Below are positions 33,870-52,492 of a stretch of 64,000 bases of DNA, piece by piece (position 1 is the first letter of the stretch; every line of letters begins with the position of its first letter). Under the pieces are notes generated by a model. The model had not been told where the DNA came from. It searched no databases and worked only from the letters and a program-made list of their open reading frames with translations. Source of the stretch: an uncultured Chloroflexia bacterium (lineage in GTDB: Bacteria; Chloroflexota; Limnocylindria; Limnocylindrales; CSP1-4); contig CAWHSS010000003.1 of NCBI GenBank assembly GCA_963832105.1, positions 813,615 to 877,614 of the forward strand, given 5' to 3'. The translations under genes were made by a program, and so were the position numbers.

Positions 33870-35113
33870 GCGAGCGTCCGCCAGCCGATCCGGCATCGAC
33901 GCCGCCCGAGGGCTCCCCGGTCGAAGATTCCGGTGTCCCCGCCGACGAGCGTCGGTCCGGATTCGACCGCCGCCGTGGCCAGCGCCGTCGCGACCGGCGA
34001 GGCGTCCGTGCGCCGGATCGGCGATCGGGCGCCGATCGGCGCCTCACGGAGGAGCGTCGCAGCGACGATCGGGTCAGCGCCGACTCGCTGTCGCTCGGCC
34101 GCCGGCTGCGCCAACCGAAGACGATCATCTCGCTGATCCTGCCGATCATCCTGCTGTTCTTCTTCGCCAGGGCCCTCCCCGGCTTCAAGCTCGACGCGGT
34201 CCCCGGCCTCATCCTCGAGGCGAATCCGCTGCTGCTCCTCGCGGCCTTCGCCGTGTTCTATCTCGGGTTCCCGCTGCGTGGGCTGCGCTGGGCACTGCTC
34301 ATTCGCGGCACTGGCTACCCGCTCCGCCTCCGCGATGCCACCGAGATCATCTTCATCTCGTGGCTCGTGAACTGCCTCGTTCCGGCGAAGCTCGGCGATC
34401 TCTACCGGGCGTACCTCCTGAAGATCAACAGCACGGTCTCGCTGAGCCGGACGTTCGGGACGGTGTTCATCGAGCGGGTGCTCGACCTCTTCGCGATCGT
34501 CGTATTGGGCCTGGCCTCCGGCTACTGGAGTTTCCGCGGGAAGTTGCCGGACCAGGTCCAGCTGGTGTTCCTGATCGGCGTCATCGTCGTCATCGTCCTT
34601 GCCGCCGGGCTCCTGTCGATGCGGAACTTCGGACGGCGCGTCATCCTCGCCCTGCCGCTGCCGCAAAAGATCATCGAGTTCTACGACCGGTTCGAGGAGG
34701 GGGTCTTCTCGGCCGTCGGGATGCGGGCGCTGCCTCGCCTGATTCTCCTGACCGGGCTCGTCTGGACGACCGAGGCGATGCGCCTCTTCCTCGTGGTCGA
34801 GGCGCTCGGCTTCCCCGACGTCCATCTCGGCATCAGCGGCGCCTTCTTCGTGGCGCTGACGGGATCGCTGCTTACCGCCGTGCCGTTCACGCCGGCGGGG
34901 ATCGGCGTCGTCGAGGCCGGGGTCGTTTTCGTGCTCACGGCTGTCTACGGGATCCCGCCGACGGAGGCGATCGCGATCACCCTCGTCGACCGGGTGATCA
35001 GCGTCCTCTCGATCATGCTGTTCGGCTCGATCGCCTATTGGGTCTCCGGCAAGCGACGCGGTGAAGGACTCGAGGGTCCGGGGCACAGCCCGGAGCCAGA
35101 ACCCGCCGGCTGA
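33866..35113 (+). CDS. Lysylphosphatidylglycerol-synthase TM / UPF0104 flippase-like protein with Arg-rich N-terminus
   Basis: LRGLRW..L, N.LVPAKLGDLYRAY, ERVLDL, TP.G.GVVEAG, DRVI; translationally coupled to the PHP gene by an ATGA overlap. Confidence 0.85.
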   Translation: MSERPPADPASTPPEGSPVEDSGVPADERRSGFDRRRGQRRRDRRGVRAPDRRSGADRRLTEERRSDDRVSADSLSLGRRLRQPKTIISLILPIILLFFFARALPGFKLDAVPGLILEANPLLLLAAFAVFYLGFPLRGLRWALLIRGTGYPLRLRDATEIIFISWLVNCLVPAKLGDLYRAYLLKINSTVSLSRTFGTVFIERVLDLFAIVVLGLASGYWSFRGKLPDQVQLVFLIGVIVVIVLAAGLLSMRNFGRRVILALPLPQKIIEFYDRFEEGVFSAVGMRALPRLILLTGLVWTTEAMRLFLVVEALGFPDVHLGISGAFFVALTGSLLTAVPFTPAGIGVVEAGVVFVLTAVYGIPPTEAIAITLVDRVISVLSIMLFGSIAYWVSGKRRGEGLEGPGHSPEPEPAG

Positions 35114-48062: not shown

Positions 48063-48257
48063 TCAGTTCTGGACTGACTGCAGCTGGCTACCGATAACGC
48101 TGAGCTTGTCGCTTACCTGGCTGCCCAGGAAGATGAGGCCCACGATAGCAACGATGGCGATGAGCGCAAGAATGAGTGCATATTCGGCCAGTCCCTGGCC
48201 GTCGTCCGCGCGGCGGACGCGGTTCACGAGAGCGGAGAGCTGCCGTAGCAACGACAT
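48063..48257 (-). CDS. flp: Flp family type IVb/IVc pilin 1
   Basis: MSLL...DDG|QGLAEYALILALIAIVAIVGLIFLG (Glu at +5, Tyr at +6); RBS GGAAAGGAGG. Confidence 0.93.
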   Translation of the reverse strand: MSLLRQLSALVNRVRRADDGQGLAEYALILALIAIVAIVGLIFLGSQVSDKLSVIGSQLQSVQN

Positions 48258-48341
48258 CCGCTTCACCTCCTTTCCGAGAGGATCCCCGACCCCCGAGGAT
48301 GGACTCTTTGCGATTCGCCGGGCATAAAGGCCGGTGCGTCC

Positions 48342-48477: not shown

Positions 48478-48648
48478 CTAGATCGAGTTACCGACGTTGC
48501 TGAGGATGCTCGAGACCTGGCCGCCCAGGAAGATGAGGGCAACGATCGCGATGATCGCGATCAGGGCGAGGATCAGCGCGTACTCGGCGAGACCCTGACC
48601 CTTCTCCTCGCGGCGGAAGGACGAGATAAGAGCGTGAAGAACTGACAT
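48478..48648 (-). CDS. flp: Flp family pilin 2
   Basis: MSVLHALISSFRREEKG|QGLAEYALILALIAIIAIVALIFLGGQVSSILSNVGNSI; RBS GGAAAGGAGG. Confidence 0.93.
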   Translation of the reverse strand: MSVLHALISSFRREEKGQGLAEYALILALIAIIAIVALIFLGGQVSSILSNVGNSI

Positions 48649-48699
48649 GTCTTGGATCACCTCCTTTCCGGAAGTCTCCCGGAATACCGGGGGCTCGTT

Positions 48700-48729
48700 A
48701 CCGTACGGGGCATGCTTCATGGGTGTCAA
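48700..48729 (-). promoter_or_regulatory. Promoter for flp2 (TTGACA-18-TACGGT)
   Basis: Perfect -35 with TAnnnT -10 on the minus strand. Confidence 0.6.
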
Positions 48730-48852: not shown

Positions 48853-49023
48853 TTAGATCGAGTTACCGACGTTGCTGAGGATGCTCGAGACCTGTCCGCC
48901 CAGGAAGATGAGGGCGACGATCGCGATGATCGCGATGAGGGCGAGGATCAGCGCGTACTCCGCGAGTCCCTGGCCTTCCTCGTCGCGGCGAAGCGAGGCG
49001 AGGAACTGGTGAACGAGTGCCAT
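48853..49023 (-). CDS. flp: Flp family pilin 3 (56 aa, missing from the ORF track)
   Basis: Manual translation MALVHQFLASLRRDEEG|QGLAEYALILALIAIIAIVALIFLGGQVSSILSNVGNSI; RBS AGGAG. Confidence 0.93.
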   Translation of the reverse strand: MALVHQFLASLRRDEEGQGLAEYALILALIAIIAIVALIFLGGQVSSILSNVGNSI

Positions 49024-49147
49024 GTGATGTTTCTCCTGGATGAGTACTCACCCCCAGATGAGGGCTTCGCCACTATGCAGCGGCCTCTCCGGGATGACCA
49101 CTAGGCAATTCGTACCGAACTCATAGGCCCCTCGGCTGCCGCCGCGC

Positions 49148-49305
49148 TCACGACGCAGCCTCGATCGCCTGGCCGATTGCCTCAAGGACGGCCGACAGCG
49201 TCCCGCCGAAGAACACGAGCACGACGGTGGCGACGACGGCCGACAGGGCGAGGATCAGGCCGTACTCGACGAGACCCTGGCCACGTTGCGCCCCTCATGG
49301 CCCAT
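49148..49305 (-). CDS. flp: Divergent Flp-like pilin 4 (needs one extra G in the GGGG run near 49290 to join its ATG)
   Basis: Manual translation ...QRG|QGLVEYGLILALSAVVATVVLVFFGGTLSAVLEAIGQAIEAAS*; missing from the ORF track. Confidence 0.75.
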
Positions 49306-49313
49306 CGGCCCGG

Positions 49314-50515
49314 TCAGGCGTGCTCTTCGGAGGGCAGGTCGACGCCGATCACGAGCTCCGCGCCGCCGGCGAGCAGCTCCGCCGAGATCCCGACCGTCGC
49401 CGCCCGCTGCTGGATCTCCCGCCAGGCGGTGGCGGGAAGCGCCACGATCGCCGCGTTGCGGGCGCTCTCGGCCGCGGCCTCGGCCTGCTCGCGGCGATCC
49501 TCGATCATCGCCGCGAGGGCCGGCGGCAGGTCCTTGCCTCCGGCCGGCGTGGCTGCCTGGGCGGCGGCCTCGCGCTCGGCCTCTTCCACGGCACTCGTCC
49601 GGTCGCGGGTCGCGGAGACGCGTCCCTCGATTCGCTCGTCCGTCCAGTCGAGGCGCAGCGAGACGTGATCCGGCGACGCGGCGACGTAGCCGTCCAGCGC
49701 CTCGTCGAGGATCCGGAACAGGCCGCTCTCGAGCTCCATCGGCAGGCGCCGGTCCGTACCCATCGATTCGAACTCGACCGTCACGCCGGCTCGCTGGCCT
49801 CGCTCGCGGACCGAGCGGCGGAGCGTCGGCACGAGGCCGAGATCGTCGAGGACCATCGGCCGGACGTCGAAGATGAAGGACTTCGTCGCGTCGAGCGTCT
49901 GCTGGACCATCGCGACGAGCTGGCGAACCTCGCCCCGGGCCATCTCCGGGTCCCGTGCGCACGAGCCGCTCGACGATCTGGGCCTGGAGGACGATGTTCG
50001 TGAGGCTCTGGGCCGGGCCGTCGTGCATCGCCCGGGCGATCTCCCGGCGGAGGTCTTCCTGGGCCGTCAGGACGATCCGCGACATTCCGGGGGCGCCGTC
50101 GTCGGCGGCACGCTTGGCTCCGCTGTCGGCCGCCGGAAGCTCCGCGCCTTCTTCTGACCGCGACGCCGAGGCTGGCAGCCATCTCGCCCAGCGATTCGCG
50201 GAATCGGGCGAGGATCTTGCGCTTGCCGTCGAGGACCTCGACCTGTGCCTCCATGACGGCGGCGCGGCGGGTCAGGTTGACGAGCTGGGCATTGAGCGCG
50301 ATGACATCCTCGGACGGGGTTGCCTCGGGCAGGCTGGCGAGCTTGTCGGTCGCCTGGGTCCGTTTGAGCTCGTGCCGCTCCGCCTCCGTCCGGGCCTGCG
50401 TGACGAGCATGTCGATCTCGGCGAGCTCACCGTCGAGGGTCGCGAGGTCGCGGCCGACGCGCGCCGTCAGCTCCCCGAGGGAATCCGGTGTCGCGCGAGG
50501 TTCTACCGAGGACAC
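49314..50515 (-). CDS. Soluble DegS-like HisKA_3 protein with degenerate ATP-binding domain (two apparent frameshifts)
   Basis: Coiled-coil N-terminus; H-box REIARAMHDGPAQSLTNI; DVRPMVLDDLGL; N-box Asn and DxGxG absent. Confidence 0.8.
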
Positions 50516-50525
50516 GGCCGTGCGA

Positions 50526-51263
50526 TCAATCCTCCGGCATCCGGATCCAGCCCTGGCGCATCGCGTAGACGACGGCCTGCGTCCGGTCGTTGACGGACAG
50601 CTTGCGGAGGATCGAGCTCATGTGGTTCTTGACGGTCTGCTCGCTGATCGAGAGGGCGTAGGCGACCTGCTTGTTCGTCATGCCCTGGGCGATGTTGTCG
50701 AGGATCTCGACCTCGCGGGGCGAGAGCGGCGCGAAGATCGGGGCGGCCTCCTGGCCGTAGACCGCGAGCTCACGGAACTCCTTGAGGACGCGAGACGCGA
50801 CGGCCGGCTTGGCGAACACCTTGTCGTTGATCAGGTACTCGCCGTTCACGACGCGCCGGATGATCGTGACGAGGTCATCCGGGCCGACGTCCTTGAGGAT
50901 GAAGGCGGCCGCGCCGGCCTTGATCGCGTCGAACAGGGCGTCCTCGTCCTCGTTGGCGGCCAGGACGATGATCCCGGTCGAGGGCAGCTCGCGCTTGATC
51001 CGCTGGGTGGTCTCGATGCCGCCCGGCGAGCTGAGCGAGAGGTCCATGAGGATGATGTCCGGCGACGTCTCGATCGCCCGATCGACCGCCGATCGGCTGT
51101 CGTCGGCCTCCGCAACCACGAGGAAGTCGGATTCGTGGCCGAGGATGTTGGCGATCCCGACGCGGAACAGGGCGTGGCCGTCGACGATGAGGATCTTCGT
51201 CTGCTCGCCCTCCGCGCGACGGTCCGGTCCGCCACGGCGGCGTTCAGGTCCCGAATAGTTCAT
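50526..51263 (-). CDS. NarL/DegU-like response regulator (receiver plus LuxR HTH)
   Basis: KILIVDGH...LMDLSL...FILKD; LSPREVEIL...GMTNKQVA..L.ISEQTVKNHMSSILRKLSVNDRTQAVV; RBS AGGAG before ATG 51263. Confidence 0.92.
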   Translation of the reverse strand: MNYSGPERRRGGPDRRAEGEQTKILIVDGHALFRVGIANILGHESDFLVVAEADDSRSAVDRAIETSPDIILMDLSLSSPGGIETTQRIKRELPSTGIIVLAANEDEDALFDAIKAGAAAFILKDVGPDDLVTIIRRVVNGEYLINDKVFAKPAVASRVLKEFRELAVYGQEAAPIFAPLSPREVEILDNIAQGMTNKQVAYALSISEQTVKNHMSSILRKLSVNDRTQAVVYAMRQGWIRMPED

Positions 51264-51274
51264 CAGGCGGTCTC

Positions 51275-52492
51275 CTATGTTCCCATCGGGATCGCCAGCC
51301 GGACGGTCGTTCCACTGTCCGGTTGCGAGTGCACCTCGAAATGGGCCCCGATCAGCTCTGCGCGCTCTTGCATGAATTGAAGCCCGAAGTTGCGGCGGCC
51401 ACGAGCCGCCACCGCTCCGACATCGAACCCTCTGCCGTCGTCGCGAACCGTGAGGACCCATTCCTCACCGTCAATGACGCTCGCGACGATGACAGATGAC
51501 GCCCCTCCGTGCTTGCGCACATTCTGAAGGGCTTCCTGGACGACCCGCAGCACAACCGTCTGCTGGGCCTCAGTCAGGCGGTCCGACGGAGCTGTCAGCT
51601 CGGTCGTGATCGCCAGGCCCGTCAGGGCGGTCGTCCGGCCGACCGCGTCGGCCACGGCGCCGTCCAGGCCCAGCTCATCGAGAACGGGCGGCCGGAGCTG
51701 GCTGATGAACGTCCTGACCGACCCGAGCTCGCGCCGGAGCAGCTCCCGGAGGAACCGCAGCTCCGTCCGGGCCAGCCGATCGTCGTGGTCGATCACCCGC
51801 TCGATGTACTCGACCTGGAAGATCGCGTTCGACAGGACCTGGGCCGGCCCATCGTGGATCTCCTGGGCCAGTCGGGATCGCTCCGACTCCTGGGCCTCGA
51901 CGATCCGCATCTGGATCTCGGTTGGCAGGTTCTCGCCCCGGTTCAGGCGGCCTGAGTCGCCGCGCTGCAGGAACGTCCCGGTGCTCTCGAGATTGCGGAG
52001 CGCGACGTCCAGCTTGGCGAGCTCGGTCTGATGGCTGCCGAGCTCGTGGCCGAGGTTCGTGACGTCCGACCGCAGGGCGCGGACGCGATCGTCCTCGGCG
52101 CCGGAGCGGGCGGGTTCGGCGGTGTCTGCGGCGTGCGCGTCGGCGCTGCCCCCGGATTCGCCGTCCGCGGCCCTCACGAGCCGGGGCCGGCTGTCCGTGG
52201 CTCGCCGCTCGAGTGCGTCGAGCTCGTCCGTGAGTGCCTGCCAGCGCGTCAGTTCATCGTTGTACGCGGCGCGGTACCGCTCGCGGATGCTCCGGAGCGC
52301 GTCGGCGCTCTGGCTGACCGCCGCGCTTGCCTCGGCGTGCAGCGCGTCGATCGACGCTGCGCTGACCTCGCGCAGGTCGCGCGGGTCCCGAGTCGCGCGT
52401 GGATCGTGCGCCGGGGGCGCGTCCTCGTTGCGGGTATCGGCATCCGTGCGTGCTGCGTCCATCGGCTTCCGAGTATAGGGGTCGCCACTCAT
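51275..52492 (-). CDS. Soluble DegS-like sensor histidine kinase (HisKA_3 plus HATPase)
   Basis: QESERSRLAQEIHDGPAQVLSN, QLRPPVLDELGL, EALQNVRKH (N box), VRDDGRGF (G1), FGLQFMQERA, GTTV; ATG overlaps the upstream stop. Confidence 0.92.
   Translation of the reverse strand: MSGDPYTRKPMDAARTDADTRNEDAPPAHDPRATRDPRDLREVSAASIDALHAEASAAVSQSADALRSIRERYRAAYNDELTRWQALTDELDALERRATDSRPRLVRAADGESGGSADAHAADTAEPARSGAEDDRVRALRSDVTNLGHELGSHQTELAKLDVALRNLESTGTFLQRGDSGRLNRGENLPTEIQMRIVEAQESERSRLAQEIHDGPAQVLSNAIFQVEYIERVIDHDDRLARTELRFLRELLRRELGSVRTFISQLRPPVLDELGLDGAVADAVGRTTALTGLAITTELTAPSDRLTEAQQTVVLRVVQEALQNVRKHGGASSVIVASVIDGEEWVLTVRDDGRGFDVGAVAARGRRNFGLQFMQERAELIGAHFEVHSQPDSGTTVRLAIPMGT

Follow-up and report, generated by a model that had tools for sequence, protein, structure and literature searches.

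A Conserved Arginine-Rich N-Terminal Tail on a NarL-Type Response Regulator of Limnocylindria as a Candidate Sensor of c-di-GMP

Introduction

Does a NarL-type response regulator encoded beside Flp/Tad pilus genes sense c-di-GMP through a short arginine-rich tail ahead of its receiver domain, and is that tail the ARR known from the Cle proteins? The question is raised by a locus in a 64,000-nucleotide stretch of DNA (referred to throughout as the window) from a bacterium of the class Limnocylindria, whose members are abundant and mostly uncultured Chloroflexota of freshwater and soil. Pili and adhesion are classical outputs of c-di-GMP; in the regulator-bearing families of Limnocylindria there are 4−22 diguanylate cyclases per genome, set against hardly any recognised protein receptor for the messenger. 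What is new at this locus is a NarL-type regulator with an uncharacterised, ARR-like N-terminal tail, and the regulator that carries it is found class-wide. By analogy with known c-di-GMP-binding systems, the tail is considered a good candidate for c-di-GMP sensing of a new kind.

The Regulator Gene and Its Start Codon

The window protein is a DegU/NarL-type (NarL/LuxR, NarL/FixJ) response regulator, in which a receiver domain (REC) is combined with a GerE-type helix-turn-helix. The gene and its parts are as follows:

50526..51263, minus strand: whole response-regulator gene (P0001, 245 aa), from the open reading frame and Pfam
51272..51276, minus strand: ribosome-binding site AGGAG, read from the sequence, 8 nt 5' of the ATG at 51263..51261
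51201..51263, minus strand: predicted disordered N-terminal tail, residues 1−21, from AlphaFold2
51216..51257, minus strand: tail motif Y3-S-G-P-E-R-R-R-G-G-P-D-R-R16, 14 residues, from conservation and motif scans
50856..51194, minus strand: receiver (REC), residues 24−136, Pfam PF00072, E = 1.5e-23
50562..50729, minus strand: GerE/LuxR-type helix-turn-helix, residues 179−234, Pfam PF00196, E = 1.3e-22

The minus strand from 51263 to 51216 translates to MNYSGPERRRGGPDRR; the N-terminus of the 245-aa regulator reads MNYSGPERRRGGPDRRAEGEQTKILIVDGH, and its tail, taken as a peptide, is MNYSGPERRRGGPDRRAEGEQT. The N-terminal motif pointed out in a preliminary description of this DNA is real, with one exact unit, YSGPERR, followed by a second GPDRR. 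The AGGAG site noted there is borne out as well, at 51276..51272 and 8 nt from the ATG; it overlaps the TAG stop codon of the upstream histidine kinase gene. That description had also kept in view a true start located beyond the motif. In the stretch that leads from the motif to receiver strand β1 there is no in-frame ATG, GTG or TTG, and the next such codon, V49, lies inside the receiver; because a start at V49 would remove β1 and α1, a start downstream of the motif is ruled out. The ATG just 5' of the motif is present in all same-family orthologs examined (29/29), and nearly all of these have a GGAG-type site 5−9 nt 5' of it. The source genome assembly comprises 2.5 Mb at 70% G+C and is 72% complete.

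The regulator resembles the NarL/FixJ proteins VraR, LiaR, NarL, DevR/DosR, DesR and DegU in its REC and GerE architecture and in its pairing with a HisKA_3 kinase, here a soluble coiled-coil kinase reminiscent of DegS. Its closest relatives in the PDB are VraR (E = 2e-36) and NarL, which fall in the 30−45% identity class. Both the phospho-Asp (LMDLS) and the Lys (ILKD) of the receiver can be read in the sequence; in contrast to these relatives, the acidic pair is D-G instead of D-D, a pair that is D-D in most same-family orthologs, and the β4 Thr/Ser switch position is occupied by an atypical Ala. A further difference lies at the N-terminus: the solved VraR, NarL, DevR and DesR align only from residue 19−24 and have no comparable tail, and ordinary NarL-type relatives at or below 50% identity begin directly at β1.

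Conservation and Predicted Disorder of the Tail

The tail motif consists of two [D/E]RR triads with a Gly-containing linker between them, the first unit of which fits the Cle consensus. Residues 1−21 are coil in the AlphaFold2 model, with a mean pLDDT of 52−63, and both domains are modelled at >90.

One explanation of such a sequence is that it is functionless, either Arg/Gly/Pro-rich low complexity arising from 70% G+C DNA or the product of a mis-called start. Sequences of this kind do occur by chance: GP[DE]RR is found about 200 times in out-of-frame translation of the source genome, and a single match to [YF]xGP[DE][RK]R is expected 0.2−0.5 times per proteome of such composition, as an upper-bound estimate; a match to the Cle unit therefore proves little alone, and it is conservation that carries the weight. 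Counting of the motif in real proteins across the genome was done by eye and is approximate, because the coding-frame filter by GC3, GC1 and GC2 still passed Arg-rich spurious frames (18% Arg).

Conservation of the tail is sharp. Six residues, namely Y3, G5, R8, R9, R10 and R16, are invariant among the 30 species compared within the window's family, each being encoded by 2−5 synonymous codons, and the species-level orthologs keep [D/E]7 in 30/30, G12 in 29/30 and P6 in 27/30; the neighbouring position 4 and positions 17−21 are hypervariable, with 5−11 different residues. The pattern [YF]xG[PQ]ERRRGGPDRR is kept in 120 of the 120 closest database homologs (>90% identical), and the flanks vary. 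In a DNA scan with one genome per species the exact motif lies on at least 120 contigs, and of 109 instances that were read, 107 immediately precede the receiver of the regulator, the other two being frameshifted copies. Judged from these alignments, the tail is translated and is a short linear motif under purifying selection at the protein level. The synonymous-codon analysis rules out a chance sequence driven by GC content; together with the motif placement and with the conserved ATG, usually preceded by a Shine-Dalgarno site and followed by no alternative start, it effectively refutes the functionless explanation on sequence grounds, leaving it scarcely credible.

Distribution in Limnocylindria

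Of 151 Limnocylindria genomes, 133 have an ortholog of the regulator, and the tail varies among the families that have it. Within the window's own family (80−93% identity) most genera display the motif in full; in one genus YxGP[D/E]RRR is retained with a second unit that has decayed to PGxxxR, and in another genus the second unit is GGQDRR or GNSDRR. The sister family (74−78% identity) features an invariant ERRxGxDRR after a Lys/Glu-rich leader, without the Tyr and without Gly-Pro, as exemplified by KVDERRRGGDRRAGKT. In a third family (55−60% identity) the regulator is present without any Arg tail, and in a family with 1.0−1.4-Mb genomes the regulator is absent altogether. Conservation in orthologs, named as a check in the preliminary description, is thus seen across two families and ends at the third. 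Among representatives clustered at 50% identity, tails occur only in relatives of ≥70% identity; the spacing of the triads ranges from 2 to 4 residues among relatives, for example in SDRRRGERR. As compared between the families, the conserved core is the pair of [D/E]RR triads on a Gly hinge, to which the YxGP prefix appears to be a family-specific elaboration.

A word search with residues 1−40 against 5.8 billion proteins returned 356 candidates, and the matches listed all belong to this regulator family. A portable module found on other proteins was considered and rejected; in both the word search and the DNA scan the exact motif was seen only ahead of this receiver, and it is therefore a private tail of the regulator and no mobile module.

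Neighboring Genes and Linkage to the Pilus Genes

The regulator gene is flanked by kinase genes and followed by a Flp/Tad pilus locus:

51275..52492, minus strand: upstream soluble DegS-like histidine kinase (coiled coil, HisKA_3, HATPase_c), from Pfam
49314..50521, minus strand: second kinase-like gene, split over three reading frames in the source assembly
48853..49047, 48478..48729 and 48063..48266, minus strand: tandem Flp pilin genes, directly downstream, from open reading frame translations with the GQGLAEY Flp motif
to about 42100, minus strand: cpaB, cpaE, cpaF and tadB/C after the Flp pilin genes, the gene order being the same in related genomes (tblastn)

The DegS-like kinase adjoins the regulator in all three families examined and is likely its cognate kinase; the two genes belong to one operon. 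The second kinase-like gene, in its intact ortholog, has HisKA_3 and lacks HATPase_c. In the window's family the order is kinase, regulator, second kinase-like gene and flp; in the sister family it is kinase, regulator and flp-cpaB-cpaE-cpaF, with the second kinase-like gene absent; in the tail-less third family it is kinase, regulator and second kinase, with the tad locus elsewhere in the genome. From this synteny, which covers only three families, the tail tracks linkage to the pilus genes and not the second kinase. The regulator most likely controls the adjoining Flp/Tad pilus genes.

Another reading is that the tail is a docking motif for a protein partner, such as the kinases, a protease adaptor, RNA polymerase or a part of the Tad machinery (CpaE/TadZ or CpaF); transcription would thereby be coupled to the assembly state of the pilus or to protein turnover. 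A disordered and sharply conserved short motif with variable flanks is the usual signature of peptide docking, and the tail co-occurs with flp/tad linkage; however, no candidate partner co-varies with it. The cognate kinase is found in all three families and tad genes are found in the tail-less family also, and the spacing of 2 to 4 residues between the triads suits independent units for a small ligand better than a fixed protein groove. The second kinase-like gene was rejected as the docking partner, as the sister family keeps the tail without this gene and the tail-less family has it. Docking is considered unlikely.

Comparison with the Cle ARR

[quoted passage not shown] The Cle consensus is a tandem [YF]xGP[DE][RK]R (PMC5677366). 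In CleD, the segment of which is AYVGPDRRRFNSADYKGPRKRKAD, binding is attributed to DRR and [R/K]RxxD elements 11 residues apart, along with Y150/Y163 caps and a turn at G165; D154, R155 and R156 contact guanine, and the peptide is disordered before ligand binding (PMC7382256). In a minimal CleD-derived peptide single-residue deletions in the loop raise the Kd 2- to 11-fold, Y163A raises it 25-fold and G165A 43-fold, and the increase is about 10-fold for either R167A or D172A (PMC7382256).

The tail might be supposed to be a genuine ARR of the Cle type, acquired by descent or transfer, with one tail wrapping an intercalated c-di-GMP dimer. Its first unit speaks for this: residues 3−9, YSGPERR, match the single-unit consensus [YF]xGP[DE][RK]R, and YSGPERRR has the pattern of CleD 150−157, YVGPDRRR, including its three residues in contact with guanine (D154, R155 and R156), and is succeeded by a second G-P-x-R-R. 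Both peptides are also short, Arg-rich and joined to a receiver domain, the tail being predicted to be disordered as free CleD is, and both organisms are rich in diguanylate cyclases.

Past the first unit the two part ways. The unit period, from Gly-Pro to Gly-Pro, is 7 residues in the tail and 13 in CleD; 5 residues separate the Arg pairs of the tail, as opposed to 11 between the CleD elements. The tail has Gly at the position of Y163, and so lacks a second aromatic, and Asp at the position of R167; there is no fixed acidic residue at +3 after R16 and the [R/K]RxxD turn is absent, and the expression [DE]RR-x(9-13)-[RK]Rxx[DE] has no match in the window regulator. The tail is N-terminal on a NarL/LuxR transcription factor, whereas the ARR is C-terminal on a stand-alone CheY-like receiver with a conserved α4 Arg. 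It belongs to Chloroflexota and its exact motif is private to the regulator, whereas 294 of the 302 hits in ARR searches are in Alphaproteobacteria (PMC5677366). The features of a Cle-type ARR that lie beyond the first unit are therefore lacking from the tail.

Since changes of these kinds cut the affinity of the CleD peptide, it is unlikely that one tail wraps an intercalated dimer in the manner of Cle. Moreover, the sister-family tail has neither the Tyr nor the Gly-Pro, so that the Cle-like appearance would be a local elaboration; the tail looks like a lineage-specific elaboration of a two-triad [D/E]RR motif, and not like a transferred Cle module. Descent or transfer from Cle is accordingly held to be very unlikely. 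Of the resemblance reported in the preliminary description, the match of the first unit to the consensus stands, and the period of 7, the missing second aromatic and the missing RxxD speak against the rest; the further proposal made there, that the same Cle module is grafted N-terminally, is not upheld in view of the spacing, the absence of YxGP from the sister family and the restriction of the motif to this regulator.

c-di-GMP Machinery in the Genomes

The preliminary description had left the presence of c-di-GMP enzymes to a check of the genome, and the source genome does possess them, with about 20 GGDEF genes (22 GGDEF hits). A lack of such enzymes is thereby rejected as an objection to c-di-GMP sensing; GGDEF is found in every tail-bearing genome examined. 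Among the genomes examined there are 4−22 GGDEF hits per genome in all three regulator-bearing families, the tail-less third family included, in which GGDEF genes are just as many as in the tail-bearing families. In the family with reduced genomes (1.0−1.4 Mb) no GGDEF was found, and it is this family that is also without the regulator.

The source genome contains three c-di-GMP-I riboswitches, and at least one is present in 9 of 9 genus genomes searched, the source included. The PilZ domain (PF07238) has no hit in the source genome, and a set of 12 genomes from the genus yielded two, both marginal; with PilZ nearly absent, protein receptors for c-di-GMP are largely unaccounted for.

Proposed Function of the Tail

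The reading preferred here, to which we assign a probability of about 0.4, is that the tail folds on binding and so forms a site for c-di-GMP or for a guanine nucleotide closely related to it. Following the analogy with CleD, each Asp/Glu-Arg-Arg triad would read one guanine, with Arg directed to the Hoogsteen edge and the acid to N1, and one tail would bind one c-di-GMP. Cle-style wrapping of an intercalated dimer is excluded from the proposal, because the triads are too close together; alternatively, the tails of two regulators may clamp a c-di-GMP dimer, which would favour dimerisation and DNA binding. The tail would emerge on the face of the receiver where the interdomain linker leaves, and a second-messenger input would be added to a pilus regulator that is controlled by phosphorylation. 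Which ligand is bound, at what stoichiometry and with what effect on transcription are all inferred; c-di-GMP binding by the tail is plausible.

Direct c-di-GMP input to REC-HTH transcription factors has precedents among LuxR/NarL-type proteins, namely VpsT of Vibrio cholerae and DevR of Mycobacterium smegmatis, and in DevR this input works together with phosphorylation by the kinase (PMC12564702). The route would differ from both. VpsT has a W[F/L/M][T/S]R motif at a helix of its receiver, which is absent from the window regulator; c-di-GMP binding by DevR is reported to occur via its C-terminal domain (PMC12564702); and neither protein has an Arg-rich N-terminal tail. The window regulator was also searched for other binding motifs, with no match to the BldD RxD-x8-RxxD or the I-site, no PilZ (PF07238) hit and no RRxxxR.

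Several observations favour the c-di-GMP reading. The core [D/E]RR-x-G-(x)-x-DRR is kept also in the sister family, at 74−78% identity; the invariance of Y3, G5, R8−R10 and R16 is accompanied by codon turnover, and the first unit has the guanine-contact pattern of CleD; the predicted disorder of the tail is like that of the free CleD peptide. The abundance of GGDEF, the c-di-GMP-I riboswitches, the near-absence of PilZ, the pilus linkage and the VpsT and DevR precedents point the same way, as does the presence of the tail in the two families in which the regulator lies beside flp/tad and its absence where the tad locus is elsewhere. Against the c-di-GMP reading, all Cle-specific features beyond the first unit fail, the second triad is lost in one genus of the window's family, the third family is without a tail and yet has equally many GGDEF genes, and the pilus association is based on three families only.

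If the tail binds c-di-GMP, it would be the missing link between the messenger and the adhesive Tad pili of Limnocylindria, and its receptor peptide of 9−14 residues would be far shorter than the Cle ARR. It would constitute a third independent route of c-di-GMP sensing for NarL-type regulators, after VpsT and DevR, and would supply a simple signature by which receptors could be sought in the sequences of other lineages. If it does not bind, a sharply conserved and unexplained linear motif remains on a class-wide regulator, and the outcome would warn against equating [D/E]RR clusters in general with c-di-GMP sites.

Related Repeats and a Possible Nucleic-Acid Arm

Arg-rich tails of transcription factors often contact DNA, which counts against the c-di-GMP reading. 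The tail could accordingly be a nucleic-acid arm, the Arg pairs of which would enter DNA, for example the major groove at G:C beside the helix-turn-helix site, or bind RNA, and so tighten or extend recognition of the pilus promoter. The regulator is a GerE-type DNA binder; its tail is predicted to be flexible and, by inference from the CheY fold, exits the receiver on the side of the interdomain linker. Arg-guanine contacts are the commonest read-out of DNA, and the tail is confined to those families in which the genes presumed to be regulated lie next to the regulator. However, both triads have an invariant acidic residue, and acids are unusual in DNA-binding arms; VraR, NarL, DevR and DesR all bind DNA without such a tail.

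A further point against an arm is that [D/E]RRSGx[D/E]RR is also found on a polytopic membrane protein of the source genus, where an LPG-synthase-like protein that lies in the window, at 33947−34072, carries repeats of it on its cytoplasmic N-terminus; DNA is thus unlikely as a ligand common to both. A nucleic-acid arm is considered rather unlikely overall.

The core of the regulator tail in both tail-bearing families is exactly a unit of the loose form [D/E]RR-x-G-x-[D/E]RR; the other copies differ in being genus-specific or poorly conserved, whereas the regulator copy is kept in two families. Class-wide conservation of the repeats on the LPG-synthase-like (flippase-like) protein was considered and rejected, as they are confined to the source genus; from this it follows that disordered tails acquire such units easily. 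A literature search for a named [D/E]RRxGx[D/E]RR motif gave nothing relevant.

A more far-reaching form of the c-di-GMP reading, which is doubtful, is that the triads define a new class of receptor, analogous to the Cle ARR and not derived from it. On the regulator of the pilus genes this receptor would have become fixed, and dimerisation would be driven there by a c-di-GMP dimer gripped between two tails; its acquisition by the LPG-synthase-like membrane protein and by small zinc-ribbon proteins would be more recent.

As a separate observation, the loose form [D/E]RR-x-G-x-[D/E]RR is present on a small zinc-ribbon protein of the source genome as well.

Receiver domain of the regulator

The response regulator contains an atypical receiver domain, in which the Thr/Ser switch residue of β4 is replaced by Ala.

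50856-51194, minus strand: receiver of the regulator, with acidic pair D-G and Ala at the β4 switch position

The acidic pair is D-G in the window's species and D-D in most orthologs from the same family; the sister family, which bears the ERRxGxDRR tail, displays D-G/T/E, and the tail-less family displays A-D.

Genes downstream of the regulator

Two further features lie downstream of the regulator gene.

49314-50521, minus strand: second kinase-like gene, in three reading frames in this assembly
49142-49312, minus strand: a fourth frame of Flp type (GQGLVEYGLILAL...), immediately following the kinase-like gene

The frame of the kinase-like gene changes near 50155 and 49950; its ortholog in L012, a genome of the same genus, is a single open frame of 413 codons that contains HisKA_3 and lacks HATPase_c. 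The split gene is either a real pseudogene or the product of assembly indel errors. In the fourth Flp-like frame a stop codon lies 6 codons upstream of the GQGLVEY motif, so that the assembly either lacks the leader or has it in another frame.

Cyclic di-GMP machinery

The window's genome (G000) encodes approximately 20 GGDEF genes and three c-di-GMP-I riboswitches; a search of the same genome for PilZ domains detected none, and 12 genomes of its genus (the survey took in G151-G162) gave two marginal PilZ hits. Several of the GGDEF domains are matched as two or three neighbouring fragments, which may reflect frame changes and hence assembly indel errors. Positions are on contigs C1, C3 and C4 of this genome.

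C3:605432-605900, C3:681194-681666, C1:270116-270495 and C4:100158-100626: fragmented GGDEF domains
C1:134597-134682 and C3:287270-287345: two of the c-di-GMP-I riboswitches, both with ORFs downstream

By eye, the ORFs downstream of these two riboswitches resemble a subtilisin-like protease and a protein that is rich in Pro and Thr and has a hydrophobic segment at its N-terminus. Within the same order, one family with genomes of 1.0-1.4 Mb (G011, G044, G056, G065, G104 and G143) contains neither the regulator nor any GGDEF gene; it has the look of a reduced lineage from which c-di-GMP signalling has been lost entirely.

Other occurrences of [D/E]RR units and of the tail

Clusters of [D/E]RR also occur in two other proteins of this genome.

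33947-34072 of the window, plus strand: [D/E]RR region of an LPG_synthase_TM (flippase-like) membrane protein, gene start ~33866
C1:150401-150694, plus strand: zinc-ribbon-like protein, 97 aa

The cytoplasmic N-terminus of the LPG_synthase_TM protein contains six [D/E]RR units, two of them as [D/E]RRSGxDRR; these repeats occur in both genomes examined from the window's genus (G000 and one other) and are absent from the orthologs of all other genera examined. The zinc-ribbon-like protein is a further carrier, with ERRGEERR and ERREGDRRQGRRR on a disordered tail.

The exact Limnocylindria regulator tail is also found on four public MAG contigs (L068, L108, L111 and L140) whose records assign them to Gemmatimonadales, Thermomicrobiales, Sulfotelmatobacter and Verrucomicrobiia; these assignments are likely binning or labelling errors.
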